From: a plasmid
Strand: one strand, 5' to 3'
Length of the DNA stretch: 29,769 bases
Sequence record: NZ_CP021967.1
Of the stretch, positions 1 through 29,769 are shown one piece after another. The notes under the pieces were generated by a model. That model did no database searches and was not told the origin of the DNA. It saw only the letters and a list, made by a program, of their open reading frames with translations. Position 1 is the stretch's first letter. Each line of letters begins with the position of its first letter. A program made the position numbers and the translations under genes.

Positions 1-843
1 TGGGATTGCCGCTCGTTAACCAATTTTTAGCACAAGGCTACGCGCTTGTGCGTATTTTAAGTGCACTTAAAATCAAACCTAGTACCTATTACAACTGGCG
101 CCATTGGCAGCCCAGTCGACAAGAAAAGCGTAGAGAATCTCTAAAACCTTATATTTTAGACGTTTGGAAAACCTTTAAATTTTATGGTTATCGCCGTATT
201 GCTGCTTATAGTCAACAAACCGACGGTCCGAAAGTATCTGGGTATATGACACTCAAATTGATGCGTGAATTAGGGATTAAATCCCGCATGCAAAAACGTT
301 ATCGCAAGCCAAAAACTGTGGTGACTGTTGATCAAAAGCCCAATTTGATTAGACACTTGCATGATTTGAGCGGTGTTTGGCAAACAGATATCACTTATAT
401 TCAGTTGACTAATCACAGATGGGTCTATTTAGCGACCGTTTTGGATCCTGAGAAGAGAAAAGTATTGGGCTATAAAATTGGCGATACAATGACAGCCGAG
501 CTAGCCACAAGTGCCTTACAGATGGCTTTAGATAAGCATCGAAGGCCATTAATTATTCATTCAGATATGGGGTCACATACACGAGTGCTGAATTTAATAT
601 TAAATGTCAAAATTATGGCTTGAAACATTCATATTCACTCAAAGGACATCCATACGATAATGGCCGTATGGAAGCATTTCATTCAATATTGAAACGTGAA
701 GAGGTGTATTTGAAGGCATACGAAACATTAACGCAAGTCCAAGCAGCCATTGGTTGGTATATCAATTTTTATAATCGCAATCGTATCTCAAATGTTGCCT
801 AAGTAACTGAATAAAAATAGTCCAATTTATTGACTTCTGAGCA
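1..843 (+). mobile_element. IS3-family element type A, 3' part (843 bp) of a copy split by the window origin. Joined to 29414..29769 it gives a 1199-bp copy.
   Basis: Sequence is identical to the reverse complement of 14606..15448 and 16544..17386. The right terminus ...TTGACTTCTGAGCA ends at 843. The window end ...GTCCGTAATG runs seamlessly into the window start TGGGATTGCC, as in the internal copies. Confidence 0.85.
6..802 (+). pseudogene. IS type-A orfB (DDE integrase/transposase), frameshifted and split into 6..623 and 620..802.
   Basis: Here ...HSDMGS is followed by HTRVLNLILNVKIMA*. The diverged paralog at 24587..25024 and the type-B IS both read HSDMGSQ(Y/F)TS...HSYSLKGHPYDN... through this point. 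The difference is a 1-nt deletion (CAATACACG -> CATACACG) that separates DD from the E of the DDE triad. Confidence 0.8.
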
Positions 844-1217: not shown

Positions 1218-1226
1218 TGTTATAAT
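1218..1226 (+). promoter_or_regulatory. Extended -10 promoter (TGTTATAAT) driving a short + strand transcript.
   Basis: Canonical TGnTATAAT. An intrinsic terminator lies ~85 nt downstream. Confidence 0.45.
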
Positions 1227-1232
1227 GAATAC

Positions 1233-1350
1233 AGAAAAAGGAAGCCTTGCGCTAACAAGACTTCCCATTATAGAGCCGTATAAGACGGTGGCAAACTTAA
1301 AACGATTAAATAACCGCTAGCTTGGCAGAGCTAAGGCGGTTATTTTTTTT
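1233..1350 (+). ncRNA. Candidate ~110-nt sRNA (antitoxin-like RNA of module a), ending in a bidirectional terminator shared with the convergent peptide gene.
   Basis: Promoter at 1218..1226. Terminator stem TAACCGC...GCGGTTA (1311..1342) plus a T8 tract. No plausible ORF with an RBS. Confidence 0.35.
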
Positions 1351-1444
1351 GTTGGTTTTTAATCAACTCAACAACTAATGCTAGTAAGGTAACTATGAAA
1401 GTACCAAACATTAGCATAAGCTGTAAAGCGTCCGATACGGACAC
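1340..1444 (-). CDS. 34-aa hydrophobic peptide (VSVSDALQLMLMFGTFIVTLLALVVELIKNQQKK; GTG start). Candidate Fst/Ldr-like type I toxin (module a).
   Basis: RBS AAGGAG lies 7 nt upstream of GTG. The peptide has a single TM-like core and a Lys-rich tail. The stop abuts the bidirectional terminator. An upstream TGTATAAT -10 on the minus strand (1551..1546) gives a ~95-nt 5' UTR. The ORF is under 60 aa and so is absent from the ORF track. Confidence 0.4.
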   Translation of the reverse strand: MSVSDALQLMLMFGTFIVTLLALVVELIKNQQKK

Positions 1445-1649
1445 TTGGGCTACTCCTTTCCTAGAATGTGAGTTTATAGTTTTTACACCATAAGCACCAC
1501 CCCCCTTAAGGAAATAGCCACCGCCTTAACTTCTCTACTTGAACTATTATACAGGATAAAGCGTGATTTACCTATTGATGATTAATGCTCTAATATCCTG
1601 AACGGCTAGTTTTCTATTTTCAATATAAATATAATTATCCGACATGTTT

Positions 1650-1967
1650 TCAATGAACCCAGATATATTTTTTTTTGGTTTCATGATTGAAGTTAGTTTC
1701 ATCTAATTGAATAGTCACAGTATAATAATTTGCTAATGCGTGCATTGCATTATGAAATATTTTATCCGTAGTCATTTTGGGTAACTTTTTTTCACTATAT
1801 ACATTTTCCTGATCCATTTTCCTTAATGCAGAAGTATGGTCGCTTAAAAAGAAGCCACGCCACTTTTTAATGCCCCTATCTCTATAATCATACTGAAAGT
1901 AATTATTGATTAAAGCGCTAAAATCTTGATCCATTTCATTTCTCATTTCAAATTTTTTATTCCTCAA
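1650..1967 (-). CDS. Hypothetical protein, 105 aa (motif YDYRDRGIKKWRGFFLSDHT), transcribed divergently from the AT-rich two-gene operon.
   Basis: Intact ORF in a very AT-rich segment. No family recognised by eye. Confidence 0.5.
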   Translation of the reverse strand: MRNKKFEMRNEMDQDFSALINNYFQYDYRDRGIKKWRGFFLSDHTSALRKMDQENVYSEKKLPKMTTDKIFHNAMHALANYYTVTIQLDETNFNHETKKKYIWVH

Positions 1968-2067
1968 TTATACGAACGTTAGTTCCCTTATGCAAGCGGC
2001 TCGATTTTAAACTTTTGTTATATTATATATGTAGTTCAAAAATATAGACTAAAAGGAAAATTTTGTT

Positions 2068-2739
2068 ATGCTTAAAATACTAAGTGAATCCATATACCAA
2101 ATTTACAAGTTTACATCAGGGATAGTATCATGGGGATTAATTAATATACCTGTTAGCTGGTTATCTTTTTTTATAGCCATCATAGGTTTGGCTAGGAATA
2201 ATCATAATAAATTACGACAAAGATTTGATTATTCATCAGTAACCCACCCATGTAATACAGTTATTACTGTTTACAACGACAGTTTAGTAACAGAAACTTC
2301 ACGATTTAATGGAATAATAGTCACTGCAAAAAAGCCAAACTTACTACGGAAAAAAGTAATTAAATGGAATTTGAAAAATAAAAAATTTGGACATAATAAA
2401 CAGCTTTTATTCCCTTTTCATCAAATGGTAAATATTCAGAATAACGAAGAAATAAAACAATCTGATTTTTTTGCTGTTAAGAGCCATGAAATGAGAGAAA
2501 TTATAATCAATAAAAAAAATTTTTTAAATTCAATAAAAAATAAGCTATACAGTAATATTAAGGCACTTACAAAGTTTACTAATAAGAAAGCATTTTATGT
2601 ATATTTTGTTTATGAAACGGTTACTGGTAAAACAAGAATGTTTGCTGTTAAAATTATTTTTGATGACCCTATTGGTCAGGATCTAAATATTGACGATTGT
2701 AATAAAGTGCTACAAGCTAAATTAAAGTACAATAACTAA
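2068..2739 (+). CDS. Hypothetical membrane-anchored protein, 223 aa. One or two N-terminal TM helices, then a Lys/Asn-rich soluble domain.
   Basis: Hydrophobic stretch GIVSWGLINIPVSWLSFFIAIIGLA at residues ~18-42. RBS AAAGGAAAA upstream. The next gene starts 53 bp downstream, so the two are probably co-transcribed. Confidence 0.6.
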   Translation: MLKILSESIYQIYKFTSGIVSWGLINIPVSWLSFFIAIIGLARNNHNKLRQRFDYSSVTHPCNTVITVYNDSLVTETSRFNGIIVTAKKPNLLRKKVIKWNLKNKKFGHNKQLLFPFHQMVNIQNNEEIKQSDFFAVKSHEMREIIINKKNFLNSIKNKLYSNIKALTKFTNKKAFYVYFVYETVTGKTRMFAVKIIFDDPIGQDLNIDDCNKVLQAKLKYNN

Positions 2740-2792
2740 CAAGTTAAGGGTAAAATACAACTAATATTTAAAAAAAGGGATAGCATTAATAG

Positions 2793-3899
2793 ATGGATTA
2801 CACTGAATTCTACAAACATGTTCAAAACGAATTGAAAGTTACCGGAACAGATAACCAGTTTCATCTGTATTATGATGAAACAAATAACTTTAGATCTTTT
2901 AAAGTAGACGATAAAGGTTTTAATGCTGACGAACATGCCTATTTCATACTTGGAGGAATTGGCATAAAAACCGACTCGCATGACATTGTTGAAGGTGTTG
3001 ATAGCCTCTTCTCAAAATTTGGTATGCAAGCAAATGCTCAAGAAATAAAGTTTAAGCATATCAAGAATGGTGCCAATAATTTTATTGAGTTAATGGATAA
3101 AAAAAGAGTAAAAGTTTTTTTGAATTGGCTTTATGAAAATGACAATGTTTTTATCCACTATAATTATGTAGATAATTTTTATTTCTCTATTGTTGACATT
3201 GTTGACTCTTTACCCAATTCAATGCTTCTCGGCATAGAATTTAATCGTGACCTAAAAGATTGTTTGTATCAAATTATGAAAACTGATAAAGAATATTTTA
3301 CAAACCTTTTCGTTTTATTAGGCTATCCAAATGTTAACAACCCTAAATTACTAATAAATAAAATTATAGAAAAGATAAATGAAATTACCCCATACGGAGA
3401 TGATTTTTGTTTAGAGTATTTACGACAGATCTTAAAATCAGCAATTAGGTCCAAACTTCCTCTTTTAGAAAATAATGTCGAGGGTGAATTGATAGATAAC
3501 TACTCTGATCTATACGCACAGAGTATTTATTCTTTTCCAAATTCTCATCACAAATTTGATCATGAATATAATATTGAGCCATTTTTAGCGAATAACCCTA
3601 TTTATGTAAATGACAAACTAGTAGACTATATTTTTGATGATTCTAAACATTCTCGATTATTACAATTATCTGATTTAACAGTTGGCATTTTAAGACATTG
3701 GATGAGTTTCCTTGAAAAAAATTCGGAATCGAAAATTTCAGATATTTTAAACAGTTTATCTAGCAATCAAGAAACAAACATTCGAAAATTACAACAAGTT
3801 ATGAACAATTCACTATCTGAAAGTCAGGGTTTCAAAATTGGTTCTGGGAGTAATACGTTTGAAAATAAAGTTTCCGATTTCTTAACTTATAAATTTTAA
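2793..3899 (+). CDS. Hypothetical 368-aa protein with DUF3800-like motifs (FHLYYDETNN near the N-terminus, SRLLQLSDLTVGIL near the C-terminus). Candidate effector of an uncharacterised defence/Abi pair.
   Basis: Long intact ORF in the ~27% GC island. The family assignment comes from remembered consensus motifs (iyiDESG ... QlADl) and is not verified. Confidence 0.65.
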   Translation: MDYTEFYKHVQNELKVTGTDNQFHLYYDETNNFRSFKVDDKGFNADEHAYFILGGIGIKTDSHDIVEGVDSLFSKFGMQANAQEIKFKHIKNGANNFIELMDKKRVKVFLNWLYENDNVFIHYNYVDNFYFSIVDIVDSLPNSMLLGIEFNRDLKDCLYQIMKTDKEYFTNLFVLLGYPNVNNPKLLINKIIEKINEITPYGDDFCLEYLRQILKSAIRSKLPLLENNVEGELIDNYSDLYAQSIYSFPNSHHKFDHEYNIEPFLANNPIYVNDKLVDYIFDDSKHSRLLQLSDLTVGILRHWMSFLEKNSESKISDILNSLSSNQETNIRKLQQVMNNSLSESQGFKIGSGSNTFENKVSDFLTYKF

Positions 3900-4104
3900 C
3901 TAGAATAATTCAGATACTCGATTATTACTGACTATAAAAGATCCAGAACATATCAACTTAAGGACGGTAAGAAATTATATTAAATTTAATTTGCGATACA
4001 AGATAATGTGCATTAAAAGGTGACATATCTTAACAATTGTGTCGCTTTTTTTTTGTGCCTTATAATTAAAGGTGTTAAAATAAGTCATAACTTACCACCA
4101 TAAA

Positions 4105-4219
4105 GCAGTCCAATTAATTTATTGACTTCTAAGTAAAATACCAGGAGTTTTGCTATGAGTTAACTATGATCCTAGGTGGTCACTAAAACATTCCTTAATT
4201 CAGGGTCTATAATTATAAT
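4105..4219. repeat. Repeat R copy 1 (~115 bp). Its first ~30 bp resemble an IS3-type terminal IR (CAGTCCAATTAATTTATTGACTTCTAAG).
   Basis: ~95% identical to 6034..6148. Resembles the type-A right end ...GTCCAATTTATTGACTTCTGAGCA. Confidence 0.75.
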
Positions 4220-4287
4220 AATGGCACTTTAAAGCGCCTGCTCATAAGTCAATAATTCGGAATGTTTTTTATCTAGGGCTGAACTGA

Positions 4288-5082
4288 TTAGGCAACTTTT
4301 ATTTTTTGATTGGCAAGACTGATTCTTTCGTTGTTGAACCAATGAATATACTTGGACACATCTAAAATTAGATGTGCAATCGATGGAAACCGGAATTGAT
4401 AAATCATTTCACGCTTTAATAGGGAGTGAAAACTTTCAATTTTGGCATTATCATATGGATGTCCTAGTTTTGAATACGAATGATCAATTTTATGTCGCTT
4501 TAACAAATTTTCAAAGCCAAAACTAGTGAACTGACTGCCCATATCAGTATGTAAATAATTTGGTTTTTTATCAGTTGACAGCGATCTTTGTAGTGTTGTA
4601 ACTACCAATTTGGTATCCATCGTGGCACTGATTGGATGGGCTAATATCTTACGCGTTTGTAACTCTAAAACTGACGCTAAATAGACCCACTGACCATTAC
4701 TCAACTTTAAATAAGTGATGTCCATGCTCCAAGCGTTGGCTTCGGGTAAATGCCTGATTAAGTTGGGACGTTGACGATAATCAACAGTTGTCGTTGGTTT
4801 GTTAAATCGACGACTCATGACAGAGTATATGCCAGCTTCTCGCATTAAACGACGAACTCGGTTGGTTCCATGATGCAAATTCAGATCAGCTAATGCTAAT
4901 CGCAGACGTGGCGCGCCATAAGCTTTATAGTTATTTTGCCAAATTTCACGCAACAAAGCTTTTAAGATCATGTCTTCTCGTTGTCGTTGGCTCTCAGTAT
5001 AGTGAACCCAATCAAAGTAGGTGCTTTTGGGTATTTTGAGTAGGCGAAGCACCATCATGAGTTTAAAATGCTGTTTTAGCAA
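4288..5082 (-). CDS. IS type-B orfB, DDE transposase (integrase core). The frame is open upstream into orfA, consistent with an OrfAB fusion.
   Basis: HTDMGSQFTS...HPYDNAKIESFHSLLKRE motif. The orfB frame sits at -1 relative to orfA with ~15 open codons of overlap. Confidence 0.85.
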   Translation of the reverse strand: MLKQHFKLMMVLRLLKIPKSTYFDWVHYTESQRQREDMILKALLREIWQNNYKAYGAPRLRLALADLNLHHGTNRVRRLMREAGIYSVMSRRFNKPTTTVDYRQRPNLIRHLPEANAWSMDITYLKLSNGQWVYLASVLELQTRKILAHPISATMDTKLVVTTLQRSLSTDKKPNYLHTDMGSQFTSFGFENLLKRHKIDHSYSKLGHPYDNAKIESFHSLLKREMIYQFRFPSIAHLILDVSKYIHWFNNERISLANQKIKVA

Positions 5083-5114
5083 TGATTGTACAATAGGAAA
5101 ATGGGTCTTACGTG

Positions 5115-5390
5115 TTACTTGCGATGTTCGCCCAGCAAAACGGCCGCAATTTTTAAAATTTCGTTTTCTTCTTTGAGTCTTGCGACTTCTTTCTGCATTG
5201 CATTAAATTGGGCGCGAGTCACTGGCTTACCGGTAACGTCCGTCCCAATGATTTGGGCTTTCTTCACCCAACCCGTGACGGTTTGTACAGCCAAATGGTA
5301 TTCATTGGCTAGAGAATTAGCAGAACGTCCCTCGTTATACAAGGTGACAATTGATGACTTAAATTCTGTTGAGTATCGCTTAGCTTTCAT
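5115..5390 (-). CDS. IS type-B orfA (HTH + leucine zipper), with a putative T_TTA_AAA slippery heptamer at ...ENEILK.
   Basis: 91 aa with a LARLKEENEILKIA zipper. The heptamer TTTAAAA sits in the 0 frame just before the overlap with the orfB frame. Confidence 0.8.
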   Translation of the reverse strand: MKAKRYSTEFKSSIVTLYNEGRSANSLANEYHLAVQTVTGWVKKAQIIGTDVTGKPVTRAQFNAMQKEVARLKEENEILKIAAVLLGEHRK

Positions 5391-5585
5391 AATATAAAAA
5401 AACTCCTATACTTGATTATCTCGGATTATGCCCTAGAAATAAAGCGGTCCGGATTTTCAGTATACGAGCAGCCACAAAGTACATAGAAGACCTTGATACT
5501 TATACACCTATGTTGATGGAAGCATTGCATTTAAGTTTATGGTGTATCATGTTGTTATACAAATTAAAATTATAGGTGGTTTAGA

Positions 5586-6002: not shown

Positions 6003-6033
6003 TAAAAAAACGCCATATAGTGCCGCAGCAAAA

Positions 6034-6148
6034 CAGTCCAATTAATTTATTGACTTCTAAGTAAAATACCAGGAGTTTTGCTATGAGTTAACTATGATCC
6101 TAGGTAGTCACTAAAATATTCCTTAATTTAGGGGCTATAATTATAGGA
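6034..6148. repeat. Repeat R copy 2. Together with copy 1 it brackets the [IS type B + arsC] segment as a direct repeat.
   Basis: See 4105..4219. It ends in GGGGCTATAATTATAGG (a -10-like TATAAT) immediately upstream of the arsR-rhodanese gene. Confidence 0.75.
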
Positions 6149-13789: not shown

Positions 13790-13894
13790 ATGATATATTT
13801 CTTCCAAGAACTCACACAATTGTTCAACGCAATCTGTGTTGCTGTTGTGACGTTCGCAATCAAACATTATTTTGATGATCTTAATGATCGTTAA
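13790..13894 (+). CDS. 34-aa peptide MIYFFQELTQLFNAICVAVVTFAIKHYFDDLNDR. Candidate Fst-like type I toxin (module b).
   Basis: RBS AAGGAGGTG 8 nt upstream. TM core with a charged acidic tail. Intrinsic terminator 9 nt after the stop. The tandem-duplication breakpoint (13866/13867) falls inside this ORF. Confidence 0.45.
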   Translation: MIYFFQELTQLFNAICVAVVTFAIKHYFDDLNDR

Positions 13895-13896
13895 AA

Positions 13897-13976
13897 TAAT
13901 GTGGGCACCTTAAGGGTGCCTTTTTGTTTGCTTTTATTGTATAACACCTATTAATTGCGATAGTCCACTACAATTT
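13897..13976 (-). ncRNA. Candidate ~80-nt convergent sRNA (RNA II-like antitoxin of module b). A second copy lies at 15835..15914.
   Basis: Minus-strand TGTATAAT -10 (13989..13984). The transcript runs into the shared terminator. Confidence 0.3.
13903..13925. terminator. Bidirectional terminator shared by the module-b peptide mRNA and the convergent sRNA (duplicated at 15841..15863).
   Basis: GGCACC TTAA GGTGCC TTTTT. Confidence 0.7.
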
Positions 13977-14035
13977 TTTTGTTATTATACACTTACGTTT
14001 ACCGATTATTTTAATGTGGTTAAGCTGACATCAGC

Positions 14036-14235
14036 TTGCCCCGCGCGGGTAGCGTTCTGCATGACATGCTCCCACTGAAGGTGATCATGCAATGATAAAT
14101 TGCCCTGTCACGGCGTGACCCGCCGGAGGTTTTACAAGCCGGATAAGTGGCGCTGTAAAATAGCAGTTTCCCCAGCAGGAAGGGGAAACGCTACTGGCAT
14201 CGCTTGTCGATGACGCGCCTCGCAGAGCCTGTCCA
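14036..14235 (+). other. GC-rich multi-hairpin region resembling an ssoA-type single-strand origin. It contains TAGCGT (CS-6-like) and several perfect palindromes. Duplicated at 15974..16173.
   Basis: Palindromes CCGCGCGG, GTCACGGCGTGAC and GTTTCCCCAGCAGGAAGGGGAAAC. TAGCGTT at 14051 pairs with AACGCTA ~130 nt downstream. Local GC is far above that of its surroundings. Confidence 0.3.
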
Positions 14236-14246
14236 AAATAGAATTT

Positions 14247-14290
14247 TGGTATAACAGGCTATACCAGATTTTTAACGGTGTTATACTGGT
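14247..14290 (+). promoter_or_regulatory. Candidate MobV-type oriT. IR TGGTATA-N6-TATACCA followed by GGTGTTATACT (pMV158-like nick region GTG/TTATACT). Duplicated at 16185..16228.
   Basis: Lies immediately upstream of the mob remnant. The 10-mer GTGTTATACT matches the pMV158 oriT nick region as I remember it. Confidence 0.4.
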
Positions 14291-14322
14291 CTTGGAAAAC
14301 CTTTTTCGAGGAGGCATTTTTG

Positions 14323-14605
14323 ATGGCGCATTTAAAGAAAAATACGCGTGGCGCAGTCCCTGGTTTAGCAGTCCATTTTGAACGTAAAACTGACCATCAC
14401 ACTAACAAAGAAATTGATGTGTCGAAAACCTATCTGAATCAAGAGCTCATGGCGGATGGTTCAGATATGCTGTCACGTTTCAATGCGCGTTTAAATGACG
14501 TTTATTGCATGAAAAGAGACGATGTGAAGGCGTTAGCCACTTGGATTGTTACTTTTACCTGAAGAACTTGCAGAAGCGCCCTACGAGCAACAGAGCGCCT
14601 TTTTT
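14323..14605 (+). pseudogene. MobV/Pre-family relaxase, N-terminal ~95 codons only. Frameshifted near codon 80 and then truncated by the IS insertion.
   Basis: MAHLKKNTRGAVPGLAVHFERKTDHHTNKEIDVSKTYLNQEL aligns with the Pre/MobM N-terminus (HxxR, NxDIDxSKTYLNY-L). After ...WIVTFT* the +2 frame continues PEELAEAPYEQQSAFF (compare MobM EEQTRTFF) up to the IS terminus. Confidence 0.6.
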
Positions 14606-14646
14606 TGCTCAGAAGTCAATAAATTGGACTATTTTTATTCAGTTAC

Positions 14647-15488
14647 TTAGGCAACATTTGAGATACGATTGCGATTATAAAAATTGATATACCAACCAAT
14701 GGCTGCTTGGACTTGCGTTAATGTTTCGTATGCCTTCAAATACACCTCTTCACGTTTCAATATTGAATGAAATGCTTCCATACGGCCATTATCGTATGGA
14801 TGTCCTTTGAGTGAATATGAATGTTTCAAGCCATAATTTTGACATTTAATATTAAATTCAGCACTCGTGTATGTGACCCCATATCTGAATGAATAATTAA
14901 TGGCCTTCGATGCTTATCTAAAGCCATCTGTAAGGCACTTGTGGCTAGCTCGGCTGTCATTGTATCGCCAATTTTATAGCCCAATACTTTTCTCTTCTCA
15001 GGATCCAAAACGGTCGCTAAATAGACCCATCTGTGATTAGTCAACTGAATATAAGTGATATCTGTTTGCCAAACACCGCTCAAATCATGCAAGTGTCTAA
15101 TCAAATTGGGCTTTTGATCAACAGTCACCACAGTTTTTGGCTTGCGATAACGTTTTTGCATGCGGGATTTAATCCCTAATTCACGCATCAATTTGAGTGT
15201 CATATACCCAGATACTTTCGGACCGTCGGTTTGTTGACTATAAGCAGCAATACGGCGATAACCATAAAATTTAAAGGTTTTCCAAACGTCTAAAATATAA
15301 GGTTTTAGAGATTCTCTACGCTTTTCTTGTCGACTGGGCTGCCAATGGCGCCAGTTGTAATAGGTACTAGGTTTGATTTTAAGTGCACTTAAAATACGCA
15401 CAAGCGCGTAGCCTTGTGCTAAAAATTGGTTAACGAGCGGCAATCCCACATTACGGACTATTTTTTGGCTAGTAAGATGGCCGCTCAA
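14647..15488 (-). pseudogene. IS type-A orfB carrying the same 1-nt frameshift as at 6..802.
   Basis: The two ORF pieces 14826..15488 and 14647..14829 are identical to the other copies. Confidence 0.8.
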
Positions 15489-15494
15489 TGCCTG

Positions 15495-15737
15495 TCAGGC
15501 TATGTGTGATAAAATTTCGTTTTCTTCCTCCAAAATAGCGAGGCGCTTCTCTAGTTGCTTGACGTCTTTTAAAGTCTTTGACTGACCCTTGATCATGATT
15601 GGGGTAGCTTGTTTAAGCCAAATAGCAATAGAATCTTTCGACGGACCAAATTCTTCTGCTAATGATTTAAGTGAACGGCCTTCTTGGTGAAGTTTAACCA
15701 ATGAATCTTTGAAATCTTGTGAATAACGAATTGACAT
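15495..15737 (-). CDS. IS type-A orfA (80 aa; HTH + leucine zipper). It ends in TGA, in the same frame as orfB six nucleotides later.
   Basis: ...LEEENEILSHIA* then CAGGCA then TTG AGC GGC CAT... (orfB). The two ORFs share phase (249 nt apart). Confidence 0.85.
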   Translation of the reverse strand: MSIRYSQDFKDSLVKLHQEGRSLKSLAEEFGPSKDSIAIWLKQATPIMIKGQSKTLKDVKQLEKRLAILEEENEILSHIA

Positions 15738-16184
15738 AAAAATACTCCTATACTTTCATTTTACGGACTGAATAAAAATAGTCCATTTTTTTAGTATAAG
15801 AGCATTATTTTGATGATCTTAATGATCGTTAAAATAATGTGGGCACCTTAAGGGTGCCTTTTTGTTTGCTTTTATTGTATAACACCTATTAATTGCGATA
15901 GTCCACTACAATTTTTTTGTTATTATACACTTACGTTTACCGATTATTTTAATGTGGTTAAGCTGACATCAGCTTGCCCCGCGCGGGTAGCGTTCTGCAT
16001 GACATGCTCCCACTGAAGGTGATCATGCAATGATAAATTGCCCTGTCACGGCGTGACCCGCCGGAGGTTTTACAAGCCGGATAAGTGGCGCTGTAAAATA
16101 GCAGTTTCCCCAGCAGGAAGGGGAAACGCTACTGGCATCGCTTGTCGATGACGCGCCTCGCAGAGCCTGTCCAAAATAGAATTT

Positions 16185-16228
16185 TGGTATAACAGGCTAT
16201 ACCAGATTTTTAACGGTGTTATACTGGT
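16185..16228 (+). promoter_or_regulatory. Second copy of the candidate MobV-type oriT.
   Basis: Identical to 14247..14290. Confidence 0.4.
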
Positions 16229-16260
16229 CTTGGAAAACCTTTTTCGAGGAGGCATTTTTG

Positions 16261-16543
16261 ATGGCGCATTTAAAGAAAAATACGCGTGGCGCAGTCCCTG
16301 GTTTAGCAGTCCATTTTGAACGTAAAACTGACCATCACACTAACAAAGAAATTGATGTGTCGAAAACCTATCTGAATCAAGAGCTCATGGCGGATGGTTC
16401 AGATATGCTGTCACGTTTCAATGCGCGTTTAAATGACGTTTATTGCATGAAAAGAGACGATGTGAAGGCGTTAGCCACTTGGATTGTTACTTTTACCTGA
16501 AGAACTTGCAGAAGCGCCCTACGAGCAACAGAGCGCCTTTTTT
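16261..16543 (+). pseudogene. Second copy of the MobV relaxase N-terminal remnant.
   Basis: Identical to 14323..14605. Confidence 0.6.
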
Positions 16544-16584
16544 TGCTCAGAAGTCAATAAATTGGACTATTTTTATTCAGTTAC

Positions 16585-17426
16585 TTAGGCAACATTTGAG
16601 ATACGATTGCGATTATAAAAATTGATATACCAACCAATGGCTGCTTGGACTTGCGTTAATGTTTCGTATGCCTTCAAATACACCTCTTCACGTTTCAATA
16701 TTGAATGAAATGCTTCCATACGGCCATTATCGTATGGATGTCCTTTGAGTGAATATGAATGTTTCAAGCCATAATTTTGACATTTAATATTAAATTCAGC
16801 ACTCGTGTATGTGACCCCATATCTGAATGAATAATTAATGGCCTTCGATGCTTATCTAAAGCCATCTGTAAGGCACTTGTGGCTAGCTCGGCTGTCATTG
16901 TATCGCCAATTTTATAGCCCAATACTTTTCTCTTCTCAGGATCCAAAACGGTCGCTAAATAGACCCATCTGTGATTAGTCAACTGAATATAAGTGATATC
17001 TGTTTGCCAAACACCGCTCAAATCATGCAAGTGTCTAATCAAATTGGGCTTTTGATCAACAGTCACCACAGTTTTTGGCTTGCGATAACGTTTTTGCATG
17101 CGGGATTTAATCCCTAATTCACGCATCAATTTGAGTGTCATATACCCAGATACTTTCGGACCGTCGGTTTGTTGACTATAAGCAGCAATACGGCGATAAC
17201 CATAAAATTTAAAGGTTTTCCAAACGTCTAAAATATAAGGTTTTAGAGATTCTCTACGCTTTTCTTGTCGACTGGGCTGCCAATGGCGCCAGTTGTAATA
17301 GGTACTAGGTTTGATTTTAAGTGCACTTAAAATACGCACAAGCGCGTAGCCTTGTGCTAAAAATTGGTTAACGAGCGGCAATCCCACATTACGGACTATT
17401 TTTTGGCTAGTAAGATGGCCGCTCAA
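16585..17426 (-). pseudogene. IS type-A orfB with the same frameshift.
   Basis: Identical to 14647..15488. Confidence 0.8.
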
Positions 17427-17432
17427 TGCCTG

Positions 17433-17675
17433 TCAGGCTATGTGTGATAAAATTTCGTTTTCTTCCTCCAAAATAGCGAGGCGCTTCTCTAGTTGCTTGA
17501 CGTCTTTTAAAGTCTTTGACTGACCCTTGATCATGATTGGGGTAGCTTGTTTAAGCCAAATAGCAATAGAATCTTTCGACGGACCAAATTCTTCTGCTAA
17601 TGATTTAAGTGAACGGCCTTCTTGGTGAAGTTTAACCAATGAATCTTTGAAATCTTGTGAATAACGAATTGACAT
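17433..17675 (-). CDS. IS type-A orfA.
   Basis: Identical to 15495..15737. Confidence 0.85.
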   Translation of the reverse strand: MSIRYSQDFKDSLVKLHQEGRSLKSLAEEFGPSKDSIAIWLKQATPIMIKGQSKTLKDVKQLEKRLAILEEENEILSHIA

Positions 17676-17742
17676 AAAAATACTCCTATACTTTCATTTT
17701 ACGGACTGAATAAAAATAGTCCATTTTTTTAGTATAAGAGCA

Positions 17743-23851: not shown

Positions 23852-23901
23852 TGCTCGTATACTGAAAATCAGGACTGCTTTATTTCTAGGGCATAATCCG
23901 A
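23852..23901 (+). mobile_element. 50-bp remnant of the IS type-B left end, in inverted orientation.
   Basis: TGCTCGTATACTGAAAATCAGGACTGCTTTATTTCTAGGGCATAATCCGA matches 5472..5423 reverse-complemented. The rest was replaced by the degenerate type-A insertion. Confidence 0.8.
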
Positions 23902-23918
23902 TGCTAATATACTAAAAA

Positions 23919-24173
23919 ATGGACTATTTTTATTCAGTCCGTTATTCACAAGATGTCAAAGATTTCTTGGTTAAACTTCACCAAGAAGGCCGTTCACTTA
24001 AATCACTAGCAGAAGGATTCGGACCGTCGAACGATTCTATGGATATTTGGGTTAAACAAGCTACTCCAATCTTGATCAAGGGTCAGTCAAAGACTTTAAA
24101 ATACGTCAAGGAACTAGAGAAGCGCCTCACTATTTTGGAGGAAGAAAACGAAATTTTATCACGCATAGCCTGA
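23919..24173 (+). pseudogene. orfA of the degenerate IS. The native start and RBS are deleted, so the ORF reads in from the IR.
   Basis: ...RYSQDVKDFLVKLHQEGRS... The same in-frame TGA then orfB arrangement (SRIA*QAASGYLTSQK) as in the intact copies. Confidence 0.6.
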
Positions 24174-24191
24174 CAGGCAGCGAGCGGATAT

Positions 24192-25024
24192 TTGACTAGT
24201 CAAAAAATAGTTCGTAATGTGGGATTGCCGCTAGTTAATCAATTTTTAGCACAAGGCTACGCGCTTGTGCGTATTTTAAGTCCACTTAAAATCAGACCCA
24301 GTACCTATTACAACTGGCACCATTGGCAGTTCAGTCGACAAGAAAAGCGTAGAGAATGCCTAAAACCTTATATCTTGGACGTTTGGAAAACCTTTAAATT
24401 TTATGGCTATCGTCGTATTGCTACTTATAGTCAACTAACCAATGACTGCCCGAAAATATCTGAGTATATGACACTCAAATTGATGCTTGAATTAAGGATT
24501 AGATCAAGCATGCAAAACGTTATCGCAAACACAAAACCGTTGTGACGGTTTCTCAAAAAACTAATCTGATTAGGCACTAGCATGATTTGAGCGGTGTTTG
24601 GCAAACAGATATCACTTATATTCAGTTGACTAATCACAGATGGGCCTATTTAGCAACCGTTTTGGATCCTGAGAAGAGAAAAGTATTAGGCTATAAAATT
24701 GGCAATACAAGGACAGCCGAACTAGCTACAAGTGCCTTACAGATGGCGTTAGATAATCATCAAAAGCCACTCATTATTCATTCAGATATGGGGTCACAAT
24801 ACACGAGTGCTGAATTTAATACCAAGGGTCAAAATTATGGCTTGAAACATTCATATTCACTCAAAGGACATCCGTACGATAATGGCCGTACGGAAGCGTT
24901 TCATTCAATATTGAAGCGTGAAGAAGTTTATTTGAAGGCATACCAAACATTAACTGAGGTCCAAGCAGCCATTGGTTGGTATATCAATTTTTATAATCGC
25001 AATCGTATCTCAAATGTCGCCTAA
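24192..25024 (+). pseudogene. orfB of the degenerate IS, broken into 24192..24545 and 24587..25024. This copy keeps the ancestral frame at the site where the three identical copies are frameshifted.
   Basis: HSDMGSQYTSAEFNTKGQNYGLKHSYSLKGHPYDNGRTEAFHSILKREE reads continuously here. Confidence 0.75.
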
Positions 25025-25225
25025 TTAACTGAATAAAAATGGTCCAATTTATTGACTTCTAAGCAATAGACTGGGCTACTAGAAATATCTATTTGAGAGG
25101 AGCTAACACAGAATTTTAGAATAATCATAATTACCTAAATGAGATTGTTTAACATAAAGTAATTAAAAAAATAAACTCATAATGAAAAACTAACATATTC
25201 ATTATAAGTTTATTTAGCATAAATC

Positions 25226-25789
25226 CTATTTTATAAGATACCTCACCGGTCTATCCCACGTATCCTTTGAAAATTTATGGATTGATTGAGGAGGCAACAC
25301 TAGCGAAACCGTTATACCATTATACTCTGCCAACGTTGCGTCAAAGAAACCTGCACCGTAACCTATCCGATAATTATCTTCGCTAAAGGCTACACCGGGA
25401 ACCACCATTAGATCTATTCCCTTCAAATTTTGTGCTTGATTTTCATCTTGTGTTGGTTCTAGAATTCCGAATTTTGATTTACTCATTAAACTTTCTATAT
25501 AGTCAAACCATAATAATTTTCCACTACTCACCCTAGGTACTACTACTTTCTTATGGCTTCTCAATGCCTCCTGAATAATGACATCAGTACTCAATTCGTG
25601 TTCCATACTTATAGTTACAGCCACTGAATTAGAGTTATTCCAATATGCCTTAGAAAACAGAATTGCCTGTAATCGCTCTTCTTCAGTAATCTTGCTATGG
25701 TAATCATATAATTTTAGTTTATCCAAGGTCATTTTTCTTATTTCTTTTTTACTAAGCACTGCTACAAATCTCCTCCAAATTATCTTCAA
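25226..25789 (-). CDS. 5-formyltetrahydrofolate cyclo-ligase (MTHFS) family.
   Basis: IGYGAGFFD (GYGGGYYDR-type) motif and a VVPGVAF loop. The true start is probably the internal Met (MTLDKLK...). Confidence 0.7.
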   Translation of the reverse strand: MKIIWRRFVAVLSKKEIRKMTLDKLKLYDYHSKITEEERLQAILFSKAYWNNSNSVAVTISMEHELSTDVIIQEALRSHKKVVVPRVSSGKLLWFDYIESLMSKSKFGILEPTQDENQAQNLKGIDLMVVPGVAFSEDNYRIGYGAGFFDATLAEYNGITVSLVLPPQSIHKFSKDTWDRPVRYLIK

Positions 25790-25790
25790 A

Positions 25791-26381
25791 CTAATCCGAT
25801 AAAATCTTACTAATTATCTCTTTTAATTCTGGCACAACCTCTTGTTCAAACCACGGATTTTTTTTAATCCATATATTATTTCTTGGTGAAGGATGAACTA
25901 TCGGAAAATAAAGAGGCAAGTAATTTTTGTAGTTCTTTATTACATCGGTTATCTTGCTTTGATAACCAAGATTCAGATAATATTTCTGAGCATATGATCC
26001 CACCAATATAATTAACTGAACATCGGGCATAAGCTCCAATAATTTTGGGTGCCATTTGTTAGCTACTCCTCGTCTGGGCGGTAAGTCACCCCATTTTCCT
26101 TTTCCTGGATAGTAAAAGTCCATGGGAATTACGCCAATTTTTCCTGAATCATAAAAGGTATCTTTACCAACCCCGATCCACTCTCTTAATCGATCTCCCG
26201 ATGCATCATCCCACATTATACCCGAGTTTTGAACTCGTAATCCCGGTGCTTGACCAATAATGACTAATTTTGCTTTTTCCGATACGTGAAATATTGGCCT
26301 TAATCCTTTTTTAGTAAACTCCATATTCATTTGATCTGCTGCTATATCATCAATAATACTCATATTCCCCCTCCTAACCAA
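25791..26381 (-). CDS. Uracil-DNA glycosylase superfamily protein (family 4/5-like).
   Basis: GQAPG motif (GEAPG-like) followed by ...VIPMDFYYPGKG... and an ...ILVGSYAQ C-terminal motif. 196 aa. Confidence 0.6.
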   Translation of the reverse strand: MVRRGNMSIIDDIAADQMNMEFTKKGLRPIFHVSEKAKLVIIGQAPGLRVQNSGIMWDDASGDRLREWIGVGKDTFYDSGKIGVIPMDFYYPGKGKWGDLPPRRGVANKWHPKLLELMPDVQLIILVGSYAQKYYLNLGYQSKITDVIKNYKNYLPLYFPIVHPSPRNNIWIKKNPWFEQEVVPELKEIISKILSD

Positions 26382-26461
26382 TGTATAATAATTATTATAA
26401 GCTACTTTATCAAACTTATATTGATTTATTAGTTCACAACTAAACTATAAAAGTCTACCAA

Positions 26462-26753
26462 GAGTCGTGCAACTTCTTTCTGCATCGCATTAAATTCGGC
26501 ACGAGTCACTGGCTTACCACTCACGTCAGTCATAACGGTCTGAGCCTTTTTGACCCAACCCGTGACGGTTTTACAGCCAAATGACATTCATTGGCTAGGG
26601 AATTAGCAGAATGGCCCTCATTGTGCAAGGCAACAATTGGTGATTTAAATTCAGTTGAGTATCGCTTAGCTTTCATAATAAAAAACTCCTATACTTGATT
26701 ATCTCGGATTATGCCCTAGAAATAAAGCAGTCCGGATTTTCAGTATACGAGCA
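26462..26753 (-). pseudogene. Remnant of IS type B (left end + degenerate orfA, ~290 bp).
   Basis: Aligns with 5180..5472 with substitutions and an indel. Ends at ...AGTATACGAGCA. Confidence 0.75.
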
Positions 26754-27939: not shown

Positions 27940-28160
27940 CAATAATTTTATAAAGTTATTGTGATATGTATATATTTATAAAGTTATATTATTATAAATT
28001 TATACTTTTATATTTTGCTACTTTTATATTTTTATGATAGTATAAATTTATAAATTAAAAAAAGTGTTTACGTATCAGTTATTAGCATGTATTGAGTATA
28101 AAAATATATTTTTATAAAAATATACTTTTATACTTTTATACTTTTATAAATACATAATTT
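27940..28160. repeat. AT-rich iteron array upstream of parA: TTTATAAAGTTAT x2 and TACTTTTATA x5 or more. Candidate centromere (parC/parS-like) and/or origin iterons.
   Basis: Direct repeats read off the sequence at 27946, 27975, 28003, 28018, 28122, 28132 and 28142. Confidence 0.55.
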
Positions 28161-28184
28161 TATAATTTTATAAAGGAGTTAAGA

Positions 28185-28997
28185 ATGACTAAAGTTATCA
28201 CAACTGGAAACTTCAAAGGTGGGGTGGGGAAGACAACAAACTCCGTAATGCTGTCTTATACATTGTCTAAAATGGACAAGAAAGTATTACTAATTGACTT
28301 AGATCCCCAAGCTAATGCAACAGATTTATTGCTAACAACAATGACTAATATTTATAAAAAGAAACCTGACTTTAAAGAAACACTGTTTGAAGCCATCAAA
28401 AATAATAATCCACAGGAAGCGTTAATAAATGTAAAAGATAATCTAGATTTGTTACCATCTTACTCAGACTTACAAAACTATGAACGTTACCTTTATGATA
28501 ATTTTTCTGATGATTACTCACAAGATCATCACTTAACAAATTTCATTAATGAATTCAAAAATGAATATGACTTTGTATTTTTAGATATTCCACCACAACT
28601 GAACAAATTTACAGACAATGCACTGGTAGCCAGTGATTTTGTAATCGTTATACTACAAACACAAGAACGGGCTCTAAAAGGTGCTGAAAAATATATAGAG
28701 CACTTATTAGAGTTACAAGATGACTATGGTCTGAATATAGATCTTTTAGGAATACTTCCCGTACTACAACAAAATGGATCAGAACTTGATTTAGATGTCT
28801 TGCAAGATGCCACAGAAAGCTTTGGTGATAACAATATCTTCAAAACTCATATTAAACAGATGAACAGACTAAAGAGATTTGATAGAACTGGTATTACCGA
28901 TAATACTAAGGATATCCACGACAAACGTATACATGCAATATATGGCGATCTCATCAAAGAAACGCTCGAGCGCATAAATATATTTGATCAAAAATAA
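28185..28997 (+). CDS. parA: ParA/Soj-family partition ATPase (deviant Walker A).
   Basis: KGGVGKTT at residues 11-18. 270 aa. Followed by a small partner gene. Confidence 0.9.
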   Translation: MTKVITTGNFKGGVGKTTNSVMLSYTLSKMDKKVLLIDLDPQANATDLLLTTMTNIYKKKPDFKETLFEAIKNNNPQEALINVKDNLDLLPSYSDLQNYERYLYDNFSDDYSQDHHLTNFINEFKNEYDFVFLDIPPQLNKFTDNALVASDFVIVILQTQERALKGAEKYIEHLLELQDDYGLNIDLLGILPVLQQNGSELDLDVLQDATESFGDNNIFKTHIKQMNRLKRFDRTGITDNTKDIHDKRIHAIYGDLIKETLERINIFDQK

Positions 28998-29413: not shown

Positions 29414-29769
29414 TGCTCTTATACTAAAAAAATGGACTATTTTTATTCAGTCCGTAAAATGAAAGTATAGGAGTATTTTTATGTCAATTCGTTATTCACA
29501 AGATTTCAAAGATTCATTGGTTAAACTTCACCAAGAAGGCCGTTCACTTAAATCATTAGCAGAAGAATTTGGTCCGTCGAAAGATTCTATTGCTATTTGG
29601 CTTAAACAAGCTACCCCAATCATGATCAAGGGTCAGTCAAAGACTTTAAAAGACGTCAAGCAACTAGAGAAGCGCCTCGCTATTTTGGAGGAAGAAAACG
29701 AAATTTTATCACACATAGCCTGACAGGCATTGAGCGGCCATCTTACTAGCCAAAAAATAGTCCGTAATG
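29414..29769 (+). mobile_element. IS3-family element type A, 5' part (356 bp) of the copy that wraps to 1..843.
   Basis: The left terminus TGCTCTTATACTAAAAAAATGGACTATTTTTATTCAGTCC begins at 29414. The sequence is identical to the other copies up to the window edge. Confidence 0.85.
29481..29723 (+). CDS. IS type-A orfA.
   Basis: Identical to 15495..15737 and 17433..17675. Confidence 0.85.
   Translation: MSIRYSQDFKDSLVKLHQEGRSLKSLAEEFGPSKDSIAIWLKQATPIMIKGQSKTLKDVKQLEKRLAILEEENEILSHIA

Follow-up and report, generated by a model that had tools for sequence, protein, structure and literature searches.

An in-frame UGA in place of the frameshift site in an IS3-family insertion sequence of lactic acid bacterial plasmids

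How might an insertion sequence (IS) make its transposase when the frameshift signal between its two reading frames has given way to a stop codon? This question is raised by the plasmid record NZ_CP021967.1, whose 29,769 nucleotides (nt), here called the window, hold four occurrences (three identical, one degenerate) of a 1199-bp IS3-family element with TGCTC...GAGCA ends, which we refer to as type A. The window is a circular molecule of ~29.8 kb, since one type A copy is split across its ends; it is related to the 37.4-kb plasmid pLEUM1 of Leuconostoc mesenteroides ATCC 8293 and is 99.8-99.9% identical to its best plasmid matches. Type A shares with the classical elements IS911, IS150 and IS3 a helix-turn-helix (HTH)/leucine-zipper OrfA, an rve-type DDE OrfB, TG...CA ends and a length of ~1.2 kb. 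However, the classical elements rely on programmed -1 frameshifting, whereas type A lacks a slippery motif; because its orfB lies in frame 0 without an overlap, decoding of UGA as sense is the only single-event route to a fused OrfAB. Based upon comparison with related elements, we propose, tentatively and with somewhat less than even confidence, that a Leuconostoc/Lactococcus lineage of IS3 elements replaced programmed -1 frameshifting by programmed UGA readthrough. It would be the first IS known to do so, possibly with the old frameshift hairpin reused as a stimulator.

Anatomy and origin of the junction

In type A copy 1 (14606..15804, minus strand; 1199 bp, 99.8% identical to copies on pLEUM1), orfA occupies 15737..15495 and encodes 80 amino acids (aa) followed by TGA (15497..15495) and a C. 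The coding strand ends GAA AAC GAA ATT TTA TCA CAC ATA GCC TGA, so that OrfA finishes in ENEILSHIA. After the TGA the same frame continues with CAG GCA TTG AGC GGC CAT CTT ACT AGC CAA AAA ATA GTC, translated as QALSGHLTSQKIV..., and the frame beyond the stop, QALSGHLTSQKIVRNV..., is the N-terminus of an IS3 OrfB. Thus, orfB is in frame 0, the two genes do not overlap, and there is no X_XXY_YYZ heptamer. The same junction is found in all four copies, with SRIA for SHIA in the degenerate one, and in these respects a previous sequence-only reading of the locus was correct: orfA and orfB share one frame split by TGA-C with no -1 window, and orfA ends ENEIL-S(H/R)IA-TGA, just where that reading had placed them. 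Copy 2 (16544..17742, minus strand; TGA at 17435..17433) is identical to copy 1. Copy 3, on the plus strand, begins at 29414..29769, with orfA at 29481..29723 and its TGA at 29721..29723, and runs on at window position 1; its right part (1..843) is 100% identical to 14606-15448. The three identical copies do not represent three independent events, as copies 1 and 2 lie within an exact 1938-bp tandem duplication (13865-15802 / 15803-17740). The degenerate copy (23902..25077, plus strand), ~91% identical, has the same insert and the TGA at 24171..24173. It was formerly delimited as 23919..24545; the TGA junction ascribed to it is there, but the copy extends to 25077, its orfA start region has been removed by a deletion, and it contains further frameshifts.

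By protein, ends and size, type A is a member of the IS3 family. Pfam recognizes HTH_Tnp_1 on OrfA and HTH_21 and rve on OrfB; the ends are of the TGCTCTTATACT...AGAAGTCAATAA type (TGCTC...GAGCA), and the length is 1199-1203 bp. A hypothetical fusion built from the copy designated J18 matches the NCBIfam model NF033516 (IS3 transposase) over residues 9-360 in one stretch, at 262 bits against a cut-off of 160. What type A lacks is the usual IS3 arrangement, with orfB in -1, an overlap and a slippery motif, which is present both in a canonical sister form and in a second element of the window, type B. As to a name, the nearest named relative, IS1520, is only 46% identical; ISLL6 was considered but not established, as the ISLL6 papers give no sequence detail.

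The canonical sister form, represented by Lactiplantibacillus plantarum pLP-HAC01 (NZ_CP029350), Lentilactobacillus parafarraginis and L. lactis KCTC 3528, is 95-96% identical to type A in nucleotide sequence and has the same inverted repeats. It shares with type A the OrfA up to ENEIL, the OrfB, the downstream hairpin and an A6-TAG motif. At the junction, however, it reads (e.g. in pLP-HAC01) ...GAA ATT TTA AAG CGA GCG GCC ATC TTA CTA GCC AAA AAA TAG, with a T_TTA_AAG heptamer, an 86-aa OrfA ending in ...ENEILKRAAILLAKK (KRAAILLAKK, then stop) and orfB in -1, whereas type A has an 80-aa OrfA without the KRAAILLAKK tail and an orfB in frame behind the TGA. The sequence-only reading had named normal slippery sites in all of the closest relatives as a finding that would count against it; part of this is indeed the case, as the sister form has one. 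Alignment with canonical copies places 20 nt (TCAC[A/G]CATAGCCTGACAGGC) where the heptamer has a single A, a net gain of 19 nt. In copy 1 this insert, TCACACATAGCCTGACAGGC (15490..15509, minus strand), stands where the ancestral T_TTA_AAG had one A, and it contains the TGA and a palindrome, GCCTGACAGGC. A type A fusion would consequently be six codons longer, stop included, than the OrfAB of either the canonical form or type B, and the residue-for-residue alignment with the type B fusion described earlier does not hold.

Type B itself (4239..5470, minus strand) has the classical arrangement that had been ascribed to it: its orfA (5390..5115) contains T_TTA_AAA (5157..5151) at ENEILK, and its orfB (5082..4288) lies in -1. 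Although type B is only 37% identical, its heptamer and the T_TTA_AAG of the canonical form occupy the same ENEILK position, and the OrfA tails are homologous (KRAAILLAKK in the canonical form, KIAAVLLGEHRK in type B), indicating that the frameshift form is ancestral. Thus, an ordinary insertion sequence of the IS3 family gave rise to type A as a derived allele. A single mutational event, the exchange of one heptamer A for 20 nt, destroyed the slippery site and set orfB in frame behind UGA-C, and the same event truncated OrfA beyond the third leucine heptad. Where the ancestral orfA frame ended (..ILLAKK and stop), an A6 run and TAG are still visible at 15458..15466 (minus strand); they are now out of phase, and ribosomes could reach them only through a second recoding event. 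The origin of the insert was also considered: in the window and ~150 fetched loci it occurs 65 times, never outside this junction, and derivation as a duplicate of flanking sequence was rejected on inspection (5/19 matches).

Type A also keeps a predicted hairpin, GAGCGGC.AUCUUAC / GUGGGAU.GCCGCUC (15435..15486, minus strand), which begins 8 nt past the UGA. The predicted spacing is 8-9 nt among variants; the J18 copy folds one base later, and its hairpin is weakened. In the canonical form the hairpin directly follows the heptamer, and its predicted fold in type A is probably that of the former frameshift stimulator. An Rfam scan of the junction returned no known RNA family. By our estimate a single indel puts orfB in frame in 1 of 3 cases and creates a stop within six new codons in ~1 of 4, so the arrangement alone is not improbable; its later spread and preservation exceed chance.

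Spread and preservation of the insert-type allele

Copies with the 20-nt insert are common. A scan with OrfB as the query, covering one genome per species and blind to the junction type, gave ~24 insert-type and 8 canonical junctions in >15 species. In PLSDB, the insert type is present in 55 records at 110 places, mostly in Leuconostoc (42 records) and Lactococcus (9), and the canonical form in 37 records at 46 places, mostly in Pediococcus (14) and Lactiplantibacillus (9). The alleles are therefore split by host on these plasmids, with the TGA form mainly in Leuconostoc/Lactococcus and the frameshift form mainly in Pediococcus/Lactiplantibacillus. Among contigs, 903 carry the exact OrfA ending ...SRIA and 87 carry the window's ...SHIA; 373 and 262 have the two most frequent canonical OrfAs. 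The 65 copies with insert and TGA-C come from many lactic acid bacteria and from metagenomes, which bears out strongly the earlier claim that the arrangement predates the divergence of the copies and is not a recent lesion. When the stop position was matched as NNN, TGA followed by C was recovered in 50/50 copies over all loci, with TAA in one decayed copy, and a metagenome scan of the same design gave TGA in 26/26; at a total divergence of only 3-9%, roughly this degree of conservation would be expected even if selection were absent. In CP178852.1, a 2.05-Mb chromosome (locus 1501-3011), a window-type orfA (...SHIA) is broken by an inverted, intact insert-type copy with an 80-aa OrfA and a 267-aa OrfB, an IS-in-IS insertion within this element family.

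The window copies are not themselves candidates for an active element. All three identical copies have a 1-nt deletion at ~14872-14874, reading GGGTCAC-ATACACG where relatives read GGG TCA CAA TAC ACG (GSQYT). Because of it, the reading frame changes after HSDMGS, past the second D of the DDE triad but before the E, and yields GSHTRVLNLILNVKIMA and a stop, the open reading frame ending at 14826; relatives without it read GSQYTSAEFN.... In copy 1 this leaves an orfB remnant at 14826..15488 (minus strand), from a TTG 6 nt past the TGA to the premature stop, and a severed, out-of-frame C-terminal part (...GHPYDNGRMEAFHSILKREEVY...NVA, then stop) at 14647..14829 (minus strand); the orfB of copy 3 has the same deletion. 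It is not a read error, because it is common to the aligned pLEUM1-type copies (ATCC 8293, and three copies in CP042406), and in copies 99.8-99.9% identical on ~15 L. mesenteroides plasmids the NCBI annotation splits orfB into two fragments. The fourth, degenerate copy carries several lesions. Thus, owing to the deletion in the catalytic domain, the window copies are unable to make active transposase whatever happens at the TGA, even at 100% readthrough. They are non-autonomous fossils, and the three plasmid positions of the window copy are the result of duplication, recombination or mobilisation in trans.

Relatives of these copies are better preserved. In 13 distinct insert-type sequences, orfA and orfB are fully open apart from the TGA (a frame of ~363 codons), and in intact copies UGA-C is followed by ~283 in-frame OrfB codons. 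Seven of the 13, intact and diverged, lie at seven different sites of the chromosome of L. garlicum KFRI01 (CP016329.1; PMC6513889). Among them 39 coding sites vary, 26 synonymously and 13 non-synonymously, with 0 variable sites in the 108 nt of non-coding ends; neither of the two commonest canonical OrfAs has CP016329.1 among its contigs. Pairwise ratios of non-synonymous to synonymous polymorphism among intact insert-type copies (0.1-0.3) were dropped as proof of selection, since these copies are mosaics with canonical ones, and an allele-sharing test was used instead. In this test the orfB alleles were sorted by carrier, with 13 canonical sequences for comparison and 174 synonymous (S) and 654 non-synonymous (N) sites. 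Alleles absent from canonical sequences but common to two or more insert-type sequences, with an intact copy among them, are distributed as S21:N15 (omega ~0.19), whereas alleles that are terminal or confined to defective copies are distributed as S42:N102 (omega ~0.65; Fisher p=0.0016 against the private shared alleles). Constraint on internal branches with decay after insertion is the pattern that a transposing family should show, and that purely trans-mobilised copies should not. Together, the fully open copies, the seven intact KFRI01 copies and the synonymous bias of lineage-private alleles favour the view that the insert-type variant still needs its orfB.

Possible routes across the UGA

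If orfB is needed, then a fusion of OrfA to OrfB is needed as well, on the established knowledge of IS911, IS3 and IS150, in which OrfB alone is inactive; the one-piece match to NF033516 is in line with this. Based upon these comparisons, we regard it as an evenly balanced proposition that the OrfAB of intact relatives is made by UGA readthrough. In intact members, most ribosomes would stop at the UGA and yield the 80-aa OrfA regulator. For a small fraction, a near-cognate tRNA, most likely that for Trp, would decode UGA and lead translation into orfB, and the product would be an OrfA-X-OrfB transposase of ~363 aa whose linker contains an insert of six residues. In this way, the ratio-setting role of -1 frameshifting would pass to leaky termination, and the former frameshift hairpin, 8-9 nt past the stop, may help. 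In E. coli, termination is said, after work by Poole and colleagues in 1995, to be weakest at UGA-C. Among bacterial stop codons, UGA is the most leaky (1e-2 to 1e-3; PMC4989110). Transposases of the IS3 family are ~200-fold more effective in cis, and the rate of transposition is set by the amount of transposase (PMC5009743). For IS elements, a review of recoding describes only frameshifting and transcriptional slippage as routes (PMC5009743), and our full-text literature searches found no IS using stop-codon readthrough. The earlier suggestion that the transposase depends on readthrough therefore stands in part: comparative evidence favours it in intact relatives, but it overlooked the DDE-region deletion by which the window copies are dead.

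Several observations weigh against readthrough, and many of them fit a different account, in which the insertion abolished transposase expression and the insert-type allele is dead and non-autonomous, an account that we consider possible but doubtful. Such an allele could ride successful Leuconostoc/Lactococcus plasmids, spread by homologous recombination or be mobilised in trans by canonical or type B elements, with its orfB repaired by gene conversion. The frameshifted window copy, with its second lesion, is present at three plasmid positions, showing that dead copies multiply too; 19 of 32 distinct insert-type sequences are defective, and 191 of 268 plasmid records hold fragments only. The type B element, which looks intact, and type A have almost the same terminal 18 bp (TGCTC[T/G]TATACT... 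and TGCTCA[G/T]AAGTCAATAA), and type B transposase might mobilise type A in trans. Polymorphisms are shared in mosaic fashion between insert-type and canonical copies, and this pervasive recombination confounds the selection signal; the excess of synonymous variants could have come from functional donors, canonical or other, outside the 13 canonical sequences sampled. Among intact insert-type copies the singletons appear neutral (S4:N13; S2:N18), but singletons do so in every class, as expected for the terminal branches of any IS, and the test does not discriminate. Likewise, a perfect 3-bp target-site duplication (ACA) is found at 2 of ~25 sites, but canonical copies are also without them; recombination between copies has probably swapped their flanks, and target-site duplications, mostly absent for both alleles, are uninformative as proof of transposition. 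Finally, tolerance of the fusion has no example, because none of the 65 copies has a sense codon at the stop and no fused ~363-aa protein >46% identical was found among 5.8 billion protein clusters, and the six-residue insert adjoins the leucine zipper and could impair OrfAB. Yet a dead allele would have to outnumber its canonical sister by 110 to 46 plasmid places and by ~3 to 1 across species' genomes, and to persist as seven intact, diverged copies (S26:N13) in one chromosome that showed neither of the commonest canonical OrfAs. It is also at odds with lineage-private shared orfB alleles whose omega of ~0.19 is significantly below that of defective lineages. Moreover, IS3-family transposases work poorly in trans (PMC5009743), and trans mobilisation exerts no selection on orfB.

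Selection on orfB would also be accounted for if the element functioned without a fusion. Ribosomes that stop at the UGA could reinitiate at the TTG 6 nt on (15488..15486), so that OrfA (80 aa) and OrfB (~281 aa) jointly transpose. The short gap is a geometry suited to termination-reinitiation, and gene callers do start a 280/281-aa OrfB at this TTG. However, the sole Shine-Dalgarno-like bases (AGG) are 2-3 nt from the TTG, too close, and an OrfB without the zipper needed to associate with OrfA would form a split IS3 transposase without precedent. In IS911, IS3 and IS150 the catalytic domain needs a covalent link to the N-terminal HTH and leucine zipper, and we consider reinitiation improbable. 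Still less credible to us is translational bypass, which is to our knowledge programmed in very few systems. Here, peptidyl-tRNA-Ala would leave the GCC before the TGA (15498-15500) and land on a matching GCC 16 nt on (15479-15481, minus strand; GCC ATC TTA CTA GCC AAA AAA TAG), giving ...SRIA-ILLAKK and a stop, and a -1 slip on the A6 run would then give OrfAB. The take-off codon is immediately followed by the stop, both lie within a small hairpin (GCCU-GAC-AGGC), and OrfA would regain its fourth leucine heptad through the hop. Nevertheless, OrfAB would require one rare event on top of another, the frame entered on landing closes after 7 codons, and the A6 run falls short of a full heptamer. 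The GCC pair and stop of T4 gene 60-type bypass are present, but the take-off hairpin has no more than 4 bp and is disrupted in two natural variants, CAAGC and CATGC, the latter an intact copy. Other forms of recoding were excluded on inspection: a prfB-type +1 frameshift leads into a frame that stops after 3 codons, and transcriptional slippage lacks a homopolymer at the stop. Artefact, whether by sequencing or assembly error, or a host that reads UGA as sense, has only the bare presence of an in-frame TGA in its favour and is effectively refuted. The identical junction recurs in dozens of independent assemblies, including the Sanger-era pLEUM1 and many metagenomes. An altered genetic code or selenocysteine was rejected from the sequence, as the hosts are Leuconostoc and related Lactobacillales and other long frames in the window (a 510-aa CLC channel, a 443-aa oxidoreductase) are uninterrupted, with no need for UGA reassignment.

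Readthrough of the type A stop would have parallels in known systems. In retroviral gag-pol, where integrase-like DDE enzymes are encoded by related elements, a low ratio of fusion to upstream product is likewise set by -1 frameshift or by readthrough, an analogy that may extend to type A. Gammaretroviruses such as murine leukemia virus (MuLV) read through a UAG, whereas lentiviruses and alpharetroviruses use -1 frameshifting, and the readthrough signal includes RNA structure ~8 nt past the stop. Type A differs in being a bacterial DNA transposon with UGA rather than UAG, and its predicted structure would be a leftover frameshift hairpin. Among bacterial examples, a leaky UGA extends the coat protein of phage Qbeta to A1 at a few per cent. 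The Qbeta extension is an added domain of a structural protein, whereas in type A it would be a whole catalytic domain, brought in by replacement of a frameshift site. If readthrough is indeed used, type A would mirror, in bacteria, the division of retroviral gag-pol genes into those that frameshift and those that read through, and the near-identical pair, one with a frameshift site and one with an in-frame UGA, would show both recoding strategies to be interchangeable in one mutational step. For experiments, the pair would be a clean system, in which one protein and one hairpin are combined with two decoding modes and two host groups, and it would bear on the leakiness of UGA termination in Leuconostoc. 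Annotation pipelines currently split these elements into 'transposase' and 'IS3 family transposase' or call them pseudogenes, and estimates of copy number and activity for lactic acid bacterial plasmids depend on whether the allele is alive. If it is dead, it is still a well-documented defective IS allele that outnumbers its parent.

Plasmid context

Besides one complete type A copy, each 1938-bp unit of the tandem duplication contains a structured, GC-rich stretch and the first 94 codons of a Mob_Pre relaxase gene, which is interrupted by the IS; the duplication could be the result of IS-mediated amplification or an assembly effect. The GC-rich stretch (15960-16170, with its duplicate near 14022-14232) folds strongly (-80.9 kcal/mol, z -2.0) upstream of the truncated mob gene and may be an origin of transfer (oriT) or a single-strand origin region; an Rfam scan of the GC-rich region near mob gave no match. 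The degenerate type A copy is bordered at 23852-23901 by 50 nt of the left inverted repeat of type B, and on its other side lies a degenerate type B copy (25226-26753, minus strand). The same hybrid of type B repeat and type A is found on plasmids of several other species (loci L006, L036, L038-40, L087 and L095) and is an old nested-IS scar carried along with the plasmid backbone. The type B element and its neighbour are flanked by a 141-nt direct repeat, 89% identical (4077-4217 and 6005-6145). Beside type A copy 3, Rfam matches above the gathering score place RatA (91.6 bits) and rli28 (69.3 bits) at 1223-1312 (plus strand) and 1378-1560 (minus strand), and the site looks like a type I toxin-antitoxin-like RNA locus. 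Finally, a very AT-rich repeat array with 8-nt phasing (27952-28182) lies immediately upstream of a ParA-type ATPase gene (28185-28997) and is probably a partition site or a set of iterons.

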